Source of the DNA: Escherichia phage HF4s
DNA length: 39,390 nucleotides
Strand: one strand, 5' to 3'
Sequence record: MT833387.1
Shown: positions 13,667-36,697 of the stretch, one piece after another
Layout: each line of letters starts with the position of its first letter
Position numbering within the stretch: position 1 is the stretch's first letter
Position numbers and translations under genes: made by a program
The notes under the pieces: model-generated
Told to the model about the DNA's origin: nothing
What the model saw: the letters and a program-made list of their open reading frames with translations, nothing else
Database searches by the model: none

Positions 13667-16042
13667 ATGTCAGATATCACAACAAATGCTGTTGTCGTAA
13701 ACCCACGCCCTATTTTCACCGACTCAAGAACGTTCCGAGCAGTTGCTAATGGTAAAATCTACGTAGGGAAAATAGACACCGACCCAACCATTCCATCAAA
13801 CCAGATCCCGGTCTACCTTGAAAATGAGAATGGTGACAAGGTTCAAATCCCTCAACCACTCATCGTAAATAACGCTGGCAAGATTGTTTACAACGGACAG
13901 TTAGCAAAGGTCGTAACGGTAAACGGTTATAGCATTGCCGTATATGACGCCTACGGTTCTCAAGTTGACTATATCCCAAACGTCCTTGGGTACGATCCAG
14001 ATAGCTTCAAAGACCAATTAGCTGGCCCAGACGGAGCATCGTTAATTGGTTATGGCAATGGAACGGTTGCAGATAAGCTTGATGAGCTTAAGACGCCATT
14101 TGACTTCGGCGCTAAAGGGGATGGAGTAACTGACGACACGCTGGCATTACAAGCATACATTGATGGTGTAGATGGCGACATTGACTTATACGGAAAAACT
14201 TATCTAGTTAGCAAAAACCCAGCACTTGCAACTACCTATCCAACGGAACCTGATTTAGCCAACAATGGATACAACTTCTGCCCGTGTCTCGCTATAGTTA
14301 ATAAAACCAATAAGAGAATCTTTAACGGCACACTCGTCAGCAAGGTATTTGGTCAGTCTGTTCTGTCTATCATCAACAGCACAGGAATAGAAGTTAACCT
14401 TAAAATTGTTGGGTTTGGTAAGTTTCCTGCCATTGACCACCCTAGTGGATATGCGGAAAAAGGATATTCAACTGGGGGCTACAATACGATTGATGGAGGC
14501 CTTCTTCTTGGCCCAAACAATTCAATCCCCACCTCCAGCTATACGCTAGGAAAGTACAATGGGGTATCAGGTCAGTTCCCAATATACGATGCCTCATGTA
14601 ACCCTACAGGTGGATATCAGTCTACTTGGGGTGCATTTGGAGGGGGTTACATTGGTAGCTATGCATGTGCTGTAACTATTCAGCGGGCATGCAAAAATAT
14701 AACACTACGCGGCTGTGAGATATACGGATTCAATGAAGCTGCTGTCGGCATTGGCATAAGATTTATTGTCAGCTCCACTGGATACACCGACTATACAACC
14801 GATGCTGATGTTCCTCGTGGGGTTAACGTCCTGGATTGCTATCTGCATGACTGCTACACAGCAGGAGTGCACGTATGCTCAGGGTACAATATTGTTTATG
14901 ACTCGTTAAGAGTGGAGAACATTGGTCATCCCAATGCAGATGACGCAACAGACACAGACATTAACCCAGGATACGGAGTAACAACATCAAGATTTAGAAA
15001 CATCCGAAACATAACTTGCGTGAATAGTTTCTTCCTAAATTGCAAACGCAAATCTATCGATTTCCATGCAGGCGGGCAATTGATAGTTGATGGAAACTAT
15101 TGCATGAGAACAGGTGTCAATGGCATATATTTTGAGGCGGGATTTGGTTGGGATAATGGATACGAGCCATATAACGTCATTGTTACTAACAATTACATTG
15201 TTACAAGAGCACTAGGCGTGGTTGGCACTGGTGGGATTTCCATGGTAGGAAATGGCTCCGCCCTAGCAGAGTCATACCCGTATCCTTTTTTGAAGTGTAA
15301 CAACAACTATATTGAGGTAAGGGCTGCCAACGGGGTGGGTATTAATAATGGTTACAACAATAACGATTACCACTATGAGGACATAAACATATGTGATAAT
15401 ACGGTTGTATACAAATCTGACACCTACACCCCGGGTCAGTTTGTTGCTATTCGTTGCAACCTAAATACTCCTTCATCTACTACTCTTCCGAAGCAAAACA
15501 TCAAGCTCTGTCGTAACAGCATAAAAATCCTGACAACGCTTGGTAATTACGCATTCGGAACTCCAATAACCATCGGTGGAACTCCTGCTGTTCTTATTGC
15601 AACCGATAATACAGTGGATATGGGGAACGTAGCTAATGGATCAAGTGCATGGTATGCGACAATTACCCCCAACCCAATAACTGACTATTACTTCTCAGGT
15701 AATAAAATACTTAACTACATTAAACCAGCCACTTTAAGACAAGCGGAAGTTATGTTCTATGACAACATAGGATTTACTGCCACAGGAACTTATGTTTCGA
15801 TAGCTATGCAGTGGTTTAGAGGGATATGGACGGTTGATGCAGCTGGTCTCGATTCACTTGCTGGCGCTAAGTCAGTTACCCTTGCATCTGACGGGGTCGG
15901 GATCACTCAGGGAACCCCGATACAACATGGGTCAATATCAGCTGCAATGACAATAAGTTCATCTAATATTGGGTTTACTACCACCGCCGGAACGACATGC
16001 TACGTTGGCGTAAAAATGAAACCTGTTGGTATTAAAGCATAA
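13667..16042 (+). CDS. tailspike protein: P22-type head-binding domain fused to a pectate-lyase-like beta-helix depolymerase domain
   Basis: 791 aa; first ~115 aa closely match the P22 gp9 head-binding domain (NPRPIFT...[16 protein letters not shown]...YDPD); remainder is unrelated to the P22 endorhamnosidase and carries the [13 protein letters not shown] motif of pectate-lyase-fold depolymerases. Confidence 0.9.
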
Positions 16043-16046
16043 ATAT

Positions 16047-16070
16047 GGCGGGGATACCCCCGCCTATTTT
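16047..16070. terminator. bidirectional intrinsic terminator between convergent tailspike and gtrC
   Basis: GGCGGGG-ata-CCCCGCC hairpin flanked by A/T runs on both sides. Confidence 0.6.
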
Positions 16071-17301
16071 ATTTCTGGTATATGTAATCGATACCGTAAT
16101 ATTCTCCAGCAGCTTTAGGGTTATGGAACTTATCAAGGCGATCCCCTAACCTGAAAGTGTTCTTCTCATTATATTTTGGCACTGTAATCACCTTTTCTCC
16201 AGAATGAATGCCTTTCTCTATCATTGCCACTCTGTCCAAGTATTGATTGTTTATATCTATGTAATATGATGACAACATGAAATAATCAACAAGAAATACA
16301 GGCAATAAAGTTAAAAGTAATACTGGCGTATAAAATTTTGAGATTTTCCCCTCAAATGAAGAAATTATCAGCGACAGACTTGCGAGAAGCAAAATAAAAC
16401 CAGTGGTCATAGCCCTTTGCGGATAGTAAGGTGCTGCAAACATAATTACATTCGAGCCGATTGCAAGGGCAAAGAATATAAAGGAGTATTGCATTTTTGT
16501 TTTATCATGCAGCATTGACAATGACGACAAAATAAACATTGATGTCATGATTACGATTATTAGTGCCCCATACTGCACAAGCATTTCAGGCATCCGGTCA
16601 AGCATGTGAAAGTAGATTCTTTCAGTTAAATCTTTTGAATACCATGAACTGAATGAAGGGCCGGAAGCCCTTGCTGCATTCCCAGGTGCCAAAAGCATGG
16701 AGGCAGAACCAACAAGTACAAATGGCAATAGAGCCAAATCTTTTACAGCGAAACGCTTGTTTATGAATGCCAATATACTATGACAAACGATAAATCCCAC
16801 AGAAAGCACCGCCACTGACTCATTCGATGCGCCAGCTAAAAATCCTAACGCAGCTTGTGGTATGGTAAATTTTACACCTTTCATTAAATTATTGCACAAG
16901 AGCATTAGAAGTAATGAAGGTATTAGATAATTAACAAACCCTACAACCCAAAAGGTATTTTGGCCTATGGAAGGGTTAAAAATAAAGAATGAAACCGCTA
17001 TTAAGCAGAATATAGCAGCCCCACCCTGAGCCATTCTCCTAATAACATGCATCAGAAGTATGCTAACTGTCGCGGTAACAGTTGCACTCATCGCATTAGA
17101 TTTAGCAAAAAGGATCATCGGACTAATAAAGTCTACTATGTATCTGCCGCTCCACCCCATATACATTGCAATATGCTTGTCAATGCTAAATCCAAGATTG
17201 CAGAATGCATAATCATCAGATTGCATTGGTGAAAGATAGCTTATTGCCCAAACCATCCCAAAGAAGGCAATATATGCGATAGGGTCTAAATACTTTTTCA
17301 T
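16069..17301 (-). CDS. gtrC: serotype-specific O-antigen glucosyltransferase, GtrC-type polytopic membrane protein
   Basis: 410-aa multi-pass membrane protein immediately downstream of gtrA-gtrB in the same orientation; visibly AT-rich relative to neighbours. Confidence 0.7.
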
Positions 17302-18214
17302 TTTCTTCCCTTCAGCACGTAACGAGGCCTATTCTTAACTTCTACGTAAATCCTGCCAATGTACTCACCGAGCACACCAATTCCTATTAGCTGAATACCG
17401 CCAAGAAAAAGAATAGAAACAAGGAGGGATGGATACCCACGAACCGCATTACCAAAGGCCAGGGTGTCTATAATCATCCACGCGCCGTACATAAACGCAG
17501 CACCGGCAACGAACAGGCCAATATAAGTCCACATGCGCAGTGGGAATGTTGAGAAGCTTGTGATCCCCTCAAGCGCCAGGTTCCATAGCTTCCAGCCGTT
17601 GAATTTGGTGCTTCCAGCCACTCGTTCTGCTCTGGCATACTCCACAACATCGGTACGGCCGCCAACCCAACTCAATACGCCTTTCATGAACAGGTTGCGC
17701 TCAGGCATGAGCTTAATGTTTTCTACCACCTCGCGAGACATTAGCCTGAAATCTCCAACATTTTCCTCGATCTGCGGGTTGCTGATTTTGTTATGCAGCT
17801 TATAGAACCACTCGGCGGTTTTCCTCTTCAGTCTGCCATCAGTTGAGCGGTCAGATCGTTTAGCAAGCACCATGTCAGCACCTGCTAGCCACTTTTCAAT
17901 CAGATGAGGAATGACCTCAATCGGGTCTTGCAGGTCAACATCAATAGGAATAACGGCATCACCTGTTGCATGGTCTAACCCTGCAAACAATGCTGGTTCT
18001 TTACCAAAGTTTCGTGTAAATGACAGCGGAACAACTAGAGGATCTGAAACGGACAGAGCGTTAATGATTGACTCCGTAGCGTCTTTGCTACCATCATTTA
18101 TAAAAACAATTTCCACTTCATATGGCTTCAACTCTTCGAATTCACGTACCGTTTTATAAAAATAGGTATCGCTTCCTCTTCGTTGAAGACAGGAACGACC
18201 AGAGATATCTTCAT
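17298..18214 (-). pseudogene. gtrB: bactoprenol glucosyltransferase GtrB, frameshifted after codon ~19
   Basis: ATG overlapping the gtrA stop encodes the canonical [19 protein letters not shown] and then terminates; the rest of GtrB ([10 protein letters not shown]...) continues in another frame; break at the T5 run (plus-strand A5, 18158-18162). Confidence 0.85.
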
Positions 18215-18573
18215 TTCGCATCCCTAAAGACAATGAACTTTGAATAGACGAAACCGCACACTAGGCTGATGGCGGAGAAGGTGACAAGAGTGACAATTGG
18301 AGGAAGTGCACATTTATCGGCAGCCCATCCAACAGTAGCACTCAGTGTTCCCATGAATCCTACATATAACATGTAGCGCATCGTTGTAGTCGAAGCTTTG
18401 AATGTGAATTTTGCATTCGCGAAGAAGCTAAAGCTCACAGCCACAACGAAACCTGCGAAGTTTGCAAGAGCCTGATTGGTGTGCGCGGCATAGATACATA
18501 CACCAAAAACCACCCAATGTATAAGTGTGTTCAGCACACCAATCGAGGTGTACTTTGCAAATAGCTTTAACAT
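18211..18573 (-). CDS. gtrA: GtrA flippase-like small membrane protein
   Basis: 120-aa hydrophobic protein with stop overlapping the gtrB start (ATGA); typical gtrA size and arrangement. Confidence 0.85.
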
Positions 18574-18706: not shown

Positions 18707-19900
18707 TCACTCCACCTTTTCATCAAGCCAGTCCGCCCACCACTGCATCATTTCTCTGCGCTTATCGAGATACTGAGCATGGTTGTAAATCCCACGCACA
18801 GATCCGCCGTTGGCATGTGCCAGTTGCACTTCAATAGCATCAGCAGGCCATTCGTGCTCGTTCATAATCGTGCTGAATTCATGCCTGAATCCGTGACCGC
18901 TTTCCAGACCCTCATAGCCGATTTGTTTGATCACAAGCAGTACCGCGTTCTCGCAGATTGGCTTCTTCTTATCGTTGCGCCCGGCAAAAACAAACTCTGA
19001 TACTGGTTTGGTGATTGAGCTTAGCGTAGTGAGAAGTTCAACCACCTGGTCTGACATAGGAACCACATGAATTTTGCGTCCTTTCATCACACTGGCGTCG
19101 ATGGTGATAATCCTGTTTTCAAAATCGACGTTCTTCCATAGCATGGAACGAAGCTCTTTCGTTCTTAGGGCTGTGTAGCGTAAAACTTTGGTCGCAATGA
19201 GCGATACGATACTTCCTGAAAATGTTGCCAGTGCTTTGTTGAATGCAGGGATCTGGTCTGCAGGAAGAAACGGGAAGTTCTTCTTGCGGTATCCCTTCAT
19301 GGCGTCAGCAAGGTCAGGTGCCGGGTTATATTTAGCCCTACCAGTGACAATAGCGTAACGGAAAACCTCGCCGCATCTTCTGCGGGCTTTGTTGGCTCGC
19401 TCCATTGCACCGCGATCTTCAAATCTGCGGATTACTTCCAACAGTTGCATCGGCTCAATATCCTGAATCTCAAGACCGCCGATGATGGGTAAAATGTCGT
19501 CATCAAACATTTTGGCAAGTTCAGTTGCATAGCCTACTGACCAGACTTGCTTCTTGTGCTCGTACCATTCCTTGTAAATCGCACTAAAGGAATTGTTGTT
19601 AGACGAAGCCTTTTTCGCCTTTACCGGATCGATGCCAACCGAGATGTCTTTCCTCGCAGTCCATGCTTTATCCCTTGCCTCTTGCAAAGTCATAAGCGGA
19701 TATTTTCCGACGGTCAGGATTTTCTCCTTACCGTCAATCTTGTAGCGAAGCTGCCATACCTTTTTCCCGGATACAGGGACATAAAGGTACAGGCCATTAC
19801 CATCGAGAAGGCGGTATGGTTTTTCTTTCGGCCTTGCTGCTTCAATCTGCTTAACGGTGAGCATGGGTAAAAATCCGGTGGGTAAAATTATTTTATCCAC
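18707..19900 (-). CDS. int: tyrosine integrase, P4-type (IntS-like)
   Basis: 397 aa with GTG start; N-terminal arm-binding-type domain and C-terminal catalytic domain with conserved R...H..R...Y region; attP-like sequence immediately upstream. Confidence 0.9.
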   Translation of the reverse strand: MDKIILPTGFLPMLTVKQIEAARPKEKPYRLLDGNGLYLYVPVSGKKVWQLRYKIDGKEKILTVGKYPLMTLQEARDKAWTARKDISVGIDPVKAKKASSNNNSFSAIYKEWYEHKKQVWSVGYATELAKMFDDDILPIIGGLEIQDIEPMQLLEVIRRFEDRGAMERANKARRRCGEVFRYAIVTGRAKYNPAPDLADAMKGYRKKNFPFLPADQIPAFNKALATFSGSIVSLIATKVLRYTALRTKELRSMLWKNVDFENRIITIDASVMKGRKIHVVPMSDQVVELLTTLSSITKPVSEFVFAGRNDKKKPICENAVLLVIKQIGYEGLESGHGFRHEFSTIMNEHEWPADAIEVQLAHANGGSVRGIYNHAQYLDKRREMMQWWADWLDEKVE

Positions 19901-20025
19901 TTTTTACCCGTCATGGAGTGCGGCTGTCAACGATCTGACGCGAACCATTACGAACTGTTAATCTACGGAAGGCTTGATATTCAGGGGATTTTGCGGACTG
20001 GTACGGATGGGAGCGAACTGATAAA

Positions 20026-20040
20026 TGGTGTCCCCTGCAG
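20026..20040. other. candidate attP core (reverse complement of the 3' end of an argW-type tRNA-Arg gene)
   Basis: TGGTGTCCCCTGCAG matches the complement of the tRNA acceptor 3' end, in the 213-bp gap between xis and int, as expected for P4-type integrases. Confidence 0.5.
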
Positions 20041-20113
20041 ACATCTACTTGAAGCGGCAGGGGATTGATTGGAATGGTGTTTTTTAGGTGTGAGAAATAT
20101 TTTACCCGCTATT

Positions 20114-20314
20114 TTACCCATTGGCGCGGCTTAAGAGCTTATTTTTGAATTCACAATGGTCACGATATAACCATCTTGCGCGTCCGTGGATAACTTTGGC
20201 TTTTGGCAGGTCGCCGGACTTAATCCGGTCATAGATGAAGGTTTTACCGAAGCCAGTATCGGCCATGATGAATTTCAAATCAACCAGGGAATCAGGCTGT
20301 AGTTCGTGTTGCAT
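20114..20314 (-). CDS. xis: excisionase / AlpA-family DNA-binding protein
   Basis: 66 aa with AlpA-like helix-turn-helix (IMADTGFGKTFIYDRIKSGDLP...GRARWLYRD); directly upstream of int. Confidence 0.7.
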   Translation of the reverse strand: MQHELQPDSLVDLKFIMADTGFGKTFIYDRIKSGDLPKAKVIHGRARWLYRDHCEFKNKLLSRANG

Positions 20315-20371
20315 GAGTGCTATCTCCGAATAGGGAATCGAACCTGCAAATCAGGCAATAAAAAACCGCCA

Positions 20372-20539
20372 TCAGGCGTTTTTGTGTTCTTTCAGTTCTT
20401 CAATTCGAATATTGGTTACGTCTGCATGTGCTATCTGCGCCCATATCATCCAGTGGTTATAGCAGTCGTTGATGTCCTCTGCTTCGATAACTCTGTTGAA
20501 TGGCTCTCCATTCCATTCACCTGTGACTCGGAAGTGCAT
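20372..20539 (-). CDS. small hypothetical protein (55 aa)
   Basis: ATG-initiated ORF below the track size cutoff (MHFRVTGEWNGEPFNRVIEAEDINDCYNHWMIWAQ...). Confidence 0.45.
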   Translation of the reverse strand: MHFRVTGEWNGEPFNRVIEAEDINDCYNHWMIWAQIAHADVTNIRIEELKEHKNA

Positions 20540-36541: not shown

Positions 36542-36616
36542 GGGTCAGTCGTATAAAGGTCATTACGGAAGGCTGTTAACCTTCTTATCGTGGTTCGAGT
36601 CCACGCTGTCCCGCCA
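36542..36616 (+). tRNA. tRNA-Asn (anticodon GUU), phage-encoded
   Basis: Cloverleaf by hand: acceptor GGGTCAG/CTGTCCC (one mismatch), anticodon stem GAAGG/CCTTC with loop CTGTTAA, T-arm CGTGG-TTCGAGT-CCACG, encoded CCA. Confidence 0.55.
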
Positions 36617-36621
36617 AATAT

Positions 36622-36697
36622 GCTGGTTTAGCTCCAATGGTAGAGCAGTCGCCTTGTAAGCGAATGGGTAGCGGTTCAAGTCCGTTAACCAGCACCA
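36622..36697 (+). tRNA. tRNA-Thr (anticodon UGU), phage-encoded
   Basis: Perfect 7-bp acceptor GCTGGTT/AACCAGC, D-arm GCTC-CAATGGTA-GAGC, anticodon loop CTTGTAA, T-arm AGCGG-TTCAAGT-CCGTT, encoded CCA. Confidence 0.6.

Follow-up and report, generated by a model that had tools for sequence, protein, structure and literature searches.

Prophage junctions point to an argW attachment site between intS and torI in Escherichia phage HF4s

The IntS/TorI recombination module has been characterised in the E. coli K-12 prophage KplE1 (also termed CPS-53) and in phage HK620, where integration depends on IntS and IHF and excision requires TorI (PMC2951348; PMC3509656). TorI, the KplE1 excisionase, is a recombination directionality factor (RDF) identical to HkaC of HK620 (PMC3509656). 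The intS promoter of KplE1, PintS, is situated in attL, is autoregulated and overlaps both attL and the P'1 site; the KplE1 core comprises 16 nt and the module is conserved in HK620, Sf6 and CUS-3 (PMC2951348). A location of attP between int and xis has been described for Kapi1, Sf6, HK620 and KplE1 (PMC8787464).

Here we describe the corresponding region of Escherichia phage HF4s, using the 39,390 nucleotides of sequence record MT833387.1 (hereafter the window), and draw on sequence identity, gene identities, junction positions, empty sites and repeat architecture. An IntS-type integrase, TorI on the opposite side, the core, repeats containing TAAA and junctions at argW were all found. We are highly confident that positions 19865-20120 constitute the attP of an IntS/TorI module of the KplE1/HK620/Sf6 type, carried by a mosaic P22-like phage that integrates at argW. 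The attachment site is already known, belonging as it does to a published and experimentally characterised module. With an experimental dissection of the same module already available from KplE1 and HK620, the locus offers no new biology; likewise, since the same arrangement is in print for Kapi1, Sf6, HK620 and KplE1 (PMC8787464; PMC2951348), our interpretation is correct rather than new.

The common core of attP was located at 20026-20040 (minus strand). On the plus strand these positions read TGGTGTCCCCTGCAG, which occurs only once in the window, and the reverse complement, CTGCAGGGGACACCA, is identical to nt 61 to 75 of the 75-nt tRNA-Arg(CCT) gene adjoining yfdC in the E. coli lysogen 980-2, which served as our argW reference. 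A blastn comparison of this gene with the window aligned tRNA nt 61-75 with 20040-20026 without a mismatch, in agreement with an earlier note on this DNA that had recognised the 15-mer as the reverse complement of the argW 3' end, CCA included. Besides the core and the T-arm piece considered below, the comparison yielded no other argW match of at least 12 nt in the window. The same note had judged a chance match improbable, and this assessment was upheld: with up to two mismatches allowed, shuffled sequences gave a mean of 0.07 matches to the 15-mer, and the expectation for an exact copy in 2 x 39 kb is about 7e-5. Given its single occurrence in the window and a shuffle mean of only 0.07, we conclude that the match to argW is real and not due to chance.

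The extent of identity between attP and attB differs at its two edges. On the tRNA-internal side identity ends at exactly 20040, the next window base (20041) giving T against C60 of argW. On the other side it continues for 0 to 7 nt beyond the end of the tRNA, with the extension TTTATCA (20019-20025, minus strand) being shared only with some host flanks. Depending on the host, attP and attB thus have 15 to 22 nt in common: 15 nt where the flank is that of the commonest empty site and 21 to 22 nt with some other flanks, against published values of 16 nt in K-12/KplE1 (PMC2951348) and 17 nt in MP1/Kapi1 (PMC8787464). The 15-nt match of the earlier note is accordingly genuine, but 15 nt is not a universal length. 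The 16-nt core CTGCAGGGGACACCAT (window 20025-20040, minus strand) is common to the argW 3' end, and the 16-nt "attP core" of the HK620 and Sf6 GenBank records aligns to precisely these positions, representing the 15-mer and one further base. The block of identity encompasses argW nt 61-75 (the 3' acceptor strand and CCA) together with the 0 to 7 additional nt and excludes the T-loop, with the break at nt 60. Within the tRNA sublocation scheme for integrases summarised in bioRxiv 10.1101/2020.11.02.365908, this use of argW is an asymmetric 3'-end sublocation and not a T-loop one.

As had been proposed, the site resides between the two recombination genes, with the integrase gene to its left (intS, 18707-19864, minus strand) and torI to its right (20114-20314, minus strand). 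The interval originally suggested, 19901-20113, does contain attP; however, the non-coding interval is really 19865-20113, as the GTG at 19900 is merely the start of the longest open reading frame. Starting instead from the ATG at 19864, as in HK620 and RefSeq intS, the gene encodes a tyrosine recombinase of 385 aa with an N-terminal arm-binding domain. Its Pfam domains are Arm-DNA-bind_3 (PF13356, E = 5.5e-25), Phage_int_M (PF22022, E = 6.2e-28) and Phage_integrase (PF00589, E = 5.3e-39), a P4-like set that justifies the designation P4-type by domain content, as distinct from the sequence of P4 Int itself. IntS is identical to HK620 Int at 379 of 385 residues (98%), its central domain matches the CPS-53 integrase (PDB 2KJ8, E = 1e-70), and the N-terminal domains of CP4-like integrases in the PDB also match it. 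The catalytic-region motifs LRTKELR, HGFRHEF and IYNHAQY are present in the translation of the intact reading frame.

The excisionase gene torI (hkaC) encodes a 66-aa RDF that is identical at 66/66 residues to TorI (PDB 1Z4H), and the gene is annotated under that name in lysogens; neither Pfam nor NCBIfam gave a family for TorI. An additional 46-aa open reading frame (19981-20121, minus strand), a homologue of HK620 hkaB and Sf6 gene 17, runs across the attP core, and integration would split it. Pfam and NCBIfam returned no match for this frame, which is probably not a gene.

Surrounding the core we found an array of short repeats. The sequence GGGTAAAA is present in six copies in the window against 0.89 expected, and five of these flank the core. 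Three are situated between the int ATG and the core and form the P' arm (19865-19909), namely 19865-19872 (plus strand), 19880-19887 (plus strand) and 19902-19909 (minus strand), accompanied by a degenerate copy, ATTTTATCCAC, at 19890-19900. Two direct repeats at the torI stop codon make up the P arm (20100-20119, minus strand), the first at 20100-20107 and the second, which overlaps the stop codon, at 20112-20119. The P' repeats coincide with the HK620 'attP' repeat features at 1207-1253 and the P repeats with that at 1441-1463; the sixth copy, within the int coding region (19487-19494, plus strand), coincides with the HK620 'attP' feature at 829-839. The GGGTAAAA copies contain TAAA, the motif of the IntS P' sites at which Panis et al. 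directed their mutations (PMC2951348). Furthermore, CGGGTAAAA in the P arm is invariant in eight divergent modules.

A promoter scan identified a sigma-70-like intS promoter (ATGACG-16-AATAAT; 19887-19914, minus strand) that overlaps the arm-type repeats and corresponds to the 'prophage excision' promoter feature of HK620 (1224-1273); it agrees with the PintS described in attL of KplE1 (PMC2951348). Matches to the IHF consensus in the attP region were weak, each having one mismatch. An inverted repeat, TCCCCTGC (20031-20038) and GCAGGGGA (20057-20064), extends over 20031-20064 with one arm inside the core, and is a candidate protein-binding feature on the P-arm side; the stretch CCCCTGC there is largely conserved in divergent modules and distant relatives. 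Two direct copies of CAGGGGATT were also observed, at 19982-19990 and at 20058, one to each side of the core. This inverted repeat and the CAGGGGATT copies may be core-type or RDF binding sites.

We examined the prophage junctions in E. coli using the interval 19901-20113, which was matched in 1900 of 5426 complete genomes, typically at two places per genome. Matches on the integrase side (attL) span 19901-20040 and end at exactly 20040, beneath a tRNA-Arg annotation, with yfdC as the next gene. Those on the excisionase side (attR) begin at 20019-20026, contain torI and are fused to host DNA. In strain 980-2, attL and attR are 39.4 kb apart; a three-way alignment of attP with attL and attR of this strain revealed a common sequence of 22 nt, TGATAAATGGTGTCCCCTGCAG, and ARAGORN identified an intact tRNA-Arg(CCT) at the attL junction of the lysogen. 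The attB rebuilt in silico from the 980-2 attL and attR is contiguous in 186 genomes, and in TCM3e1, which has an empty site, the genes flanking argW are those that surround the prophage in 980-2.

The commonest empty site, here called "G"-flank attB, is contiguous in 1415 genomes and has exactly 15 nt in common with attP. Strand exchange must consequently fall inside these 15 nt, since identity with a "G"-flank host consists of exactly those positions. Among 80 viral contigs encoding an identical TorI, the sequence after CCA was G... (the commonest), T followed by unrelated sequence, TTTATC, or the phage's own arm. The base next to the CCA of argW varies by E. coli lineage, and attP and attB therefore share 15, 16, 17, 21 or 22 nt.

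In lysogens with the order yfdH(gtrB)-yfdG(gtrA)-intS-tRNA-Arg, the match to the window extends from gtrB as far as 20040. Thus, gtrCBA and intS are placed with the P' arm at attL beside argW/yfdC, and torI with the P arm at attR approximately 39 kb away. These junctions derive from prophages that share the recombination module; a search for a lysogen of the exact phage, including its gtrC and tailspike, returned none. The predictions of the earlier note, that the phage integrates at argW and that int and the gtr genes become separated from xis, are hence borne out by lysogens whose junctions fall at the edges of the 15-mer. Of the two observations that would have spoken against the site, a lack of a tRNA match and junctions located elsewhere, neither was made when the alignment and the attL and attR of host genomes were inspected.

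Separately, an intact int-attP-torI junction was observed in 17 genomes, 12 times on a chromosome and five times on small non-chromosomal records. Most of the 12 chromosomal cases have three places matching the interval, and in one chromosome, NZ_CP082824.1 (positions 2501-2713 of our locus L031), the intact junction lies between a tailspike gene and early genes. We take this as a hint of either two prophages in tandem at argW or phage genomes assembled as circles.

By analogy with KplE1 and HK620, the N-terminal domain of IntS would bind the GGGTAAAA arm-type repeats and its catalytic domain the core-type sequences around 20026-20040, with IHF assisting, and strand exchange would join the 15-nt core to its exact counterpart at the 3' end of argW in the chromosome. 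Because the phage brings the last 15 nt of the gene, including CCA, argW is intact after insertion. As attP is positioned between the two recombination genes, integration separates intS from torI. Within the prophage, intS would be transcribed from its own promoter in attL, as in KplE1, and because this promoter overlaps arm-type sites it is likely to be repressed by IntS and TorI, to judge from the KplE1 work. Excision would begin upon expression of torI, with TorI directing the reaction. For protein binding, IHF dependence and promoter regulation this scheme follows published work (PMC2951348; PMC3509656). For annotation, the site fixes argW as the integration site, the ends of the prophage and the gene order of the lysogen; the position of attP explains why int and the gtr genes for O-antigen modification remain joined beside argW.

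A second argW-derived piece, TTGCAGGTTCGATTCC, was found at 20334-20349 (minus strand), 20 to 35 nt upstream of the torI ATG. It is an exact 16-nt match (blastn) to argW nt 46-61 and comprises the 5' half of the T-stem, the T-loop and two further nt. The piece sits between a terminator-like hairpin, read by eye and uncalled by a consensus scan, and the torI ribosome-binding site, and it is also present in HK620, Sf6 and the 980-2 prophage. We compared 16 distinct TorI modules drawn from species-representative Enterobacterales genomes: ten possess the motif and six do not. One motif-less module (L015) has the appearance of its relative L011 with some 35 nt, the motif among them, taken out. In eight distinct and divergent motif-bearing modules from several Enterobacterales genera the central 9 nt, GGTTCGATT, are invariant and tie for the longest invariant run of the whole module, whereas only 1 of 19 positions in the neighbouring leader and none of 71 in the upstream DNA are invariant in the same eight sequences. 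The sequence TTCGAT recurs in the attP of relatives, immediately to the left of the core; the motif may for this reason reflect recognition by the core-binding domain of the integrase, which is speculation on our part.

These observations raise the possibility that the T-arm piece is a selected element and not a neutral relic, perhaps a copy of a B-type half-site for the IntS catalytic domain that could link torI expression, or the geometry of the intasome, to occupancy by the integrase. The invariance of GGTTCGATT in eight divergent modules with variable flanks, together with the TTCGAT to the left of the core, counts in its favour; the six modules without the motif, the occasional SNPs in E. 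coli copies and the lack of a conserved RNA fold count against it, and on balance we consider it unlikely. RNAalifold detected no conserved fold in the torI leader (-0.02 kcal/mol) and no covariation, and no Rfam family scored above threshold at the motif or the leader. Below threshold, two enterobacterial sRNA families matched window 20264-20411, STnc130 on the plus strand (29 bits against a gathering score of 55) and STnc420 on the minus strand (24.6 bits against 70); both overlap the 5' end of torI and the terminator-like hairpin upstream. In the literature consulted on the IntS/TorI module we found no published explanation or mention of the T-arm motif and no characterisation of the torI promoter region.

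Other explanations of the motif were rejected. A sigma-70 or sigma-54 promoter was dismissed, there being no acceptable -10 or -24/-12 spacing by eye and no promoter found by the scan, as was the cII box of HK620 (TTGC-N5-TTGC, window 20346-20358), whose second TTGC is not conserved in relatives. Since argW nt 46-61 (20349-20334) and nt 61-75 (20040-20026) tile the tRNA 3' end, we also considered whether torI and the P arm had entered a tRNA block of 30 nt that was formerly continuous. As a simple story this was rejected: in Serratia the two argW pieces overlap rather than abut. A degenerate T-loop, TTCGATGTaTGCAGGGG, is found directly left of the core in relatives, so that the upstream motif is a second copy.

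We weighed three alternatives to the assignment of attP. Were the 15-mer a chance or vestigial match, with the real attachment site elsewhere in the genome, one might point to the five substitutions that distinguish the window from HK620 in the stretch from the int ATG to the torI stop. Neither the core nor any arm repeat departs from its HK620 counterpart, however, the number of matches expected by chance is negligible, no further argW match of at least 12 nt exists in the window except the T-arm piece, and in about 1900 E. coli genomes homology breaks off at the edges of the 15-mer. Additionally, HK620 att substrates served in recombination assays of the KplE1 module, in which excision needs TorI (PMC2951348, citing Panis 2007). 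We regard a chance or vestigial origin as having practically no likelihood. An equally negligible prospect is that exchange takes place in the T-loop of argW, the symmetric sublocation of many P4-like integrases, with 20334-20349 and not 20026-20040 as the phage partner. T-loop sublocations are common among tRNA-targeting integrases (bioRxiv 10.1101/2020.11.02.365908), and an exact 16-nt copy of argW nt 46-61 with the 7-nt T-loop does stand upstream of torI. Exchange at that position, however, would swap the last 14 nt of argW for unrelated sequence and destroy the tRNA, whereas lysogens keep it intact; moreover, attL ends at 20040 and attR starts at 20019-20026, and in all observed junctions the argW-distal end of the prophage contains torI and the 293 bp that separate the pieces. 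For the sampled lysogens, exchange in the T-loop is refuted.

The remaining alternative accepts the attP as true but holds that the module is inactive in phage HF4s, a relic of mosaic recombination. That the phage is mosaic, that no identical prophage was found and that its Int departs from HK620 Int at 6 residues would fit such a relic. Against this, the int reading frame is intact and retains LRTKELR, HGFRHEF and IYNHAQY, TorI is 100% identical to the characterised protein, and the core, the arm repeats and the promoter-like site are all intact; an inactive module thus appears very improbable, if somewhat less so than the other two alternatives. We retain the assignment of 19865-20120 as the attP of an IntS/TorI module that integrates at argW.

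Downstream of int, and joined to it at the argW-proximal end of the prophage, are three genes for O-antigen glucosylation (16069-18573), all on the minus strand: gtrA (18211-18573; Pfam GtrA_DPMS_TM), gtrB (17298-18233; Glycos_transf_2) and a gtrC-like gene (16069-17301; DUF6056). By sequence comparison the phage is a new mosaic, no phage record covering more than 61% of its right half. Neither the tailspike nor the gtrC-like (DUF6056) product has a close match in the phage collection, whilst int, torI and the early region do; these host-range and serotype-conversion functions are therefore the novel part of the mosaic. Both are encoded within window 13667-17301, and the tailspike (791 aa) combines a P22-type head-binding domain with a divergent receptor-binding part. 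Two adjacent phage tRNA genes, Asn(GTT) and Thr(TGT), were noted at 36542-36697, and the same tRNA pair arrangement has been described before the lysis genes of Kapi1.

Comparison with known systems places the locus among the argW-integrating modules. Over int-attP-xis, DNA identity to HK620, Sf6, IME10, N7 and CUS-3 is 96-97%. The gene order int, attP, hkaC/torI is that of the Lederbergvirus phages HK620 (AF335538) and Sf6 (AF547987), and neither the core nor any of the five flanking repeats differs among the window, HK620 and Sf6, the few substitutions falling between the repeats; those relative to HK620 occupy alignment columns 137, 138, 172, 188 and 235. The cargo beside int does differ, being oac in Sf6, absent in HK620 and gtrABC in the window. 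Kapi1 and CUS-3, which are P22-like and integrate at argW, also have attP between int and xis but bear other O-antigen modification cargo and another tailspike. The 17-bp duplication of Kapi1, AATGGTGTCCCCTGCAG, corresponds to window 20024-20040 (PMC8787464), and CUS-3 has 61% of the early and late regions in common with the window at 97% identity.

A related int-attP-xis module was noted in Klebsiella phage vB_Kpn_Chronis (2634-2882 of our locus L006), 77% identical and with the GGGTAAAA repeats kept. Its core is a related one (GTGTCCCCTGCA, also read as CAAGTGTCCCCTGCAT); the T-arm motif is absent. As this core lacks the CCA-complement, the module may target a different or variant site.

Phages lambda and P22 employ a heterobivalent tyrosine integrase that acts on arm- and core-type sites with its direction controlled by an RDF, as proposed for the window, and P22 too targets the 3' end of a tRNA gene (thrW). 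In both phages attP is outside int-xis, which keeps the two genes at the same end of the prophage, and transcription of int passes through xis. In the KplE1-type module, by contrast, attP splits int from xis and int has its own autoregulated promoter (PMC2951348). KplE1 itself encodes an identical TorI, has the core CTGCAGGGGACACCA(T) as in the window and likewise carries intS-gtrA-gtrB (yfdG, yfdH) beside argW (PMC2951348). Its experimentally characterised mechanism, involving IntS, TorI, IHF and the autoregulated PintS, is the model applied here; KplE1, however, is a 10.2-kb remnant possessing only attL and attR, whereas the window is a complete phage genome with a joined attP.
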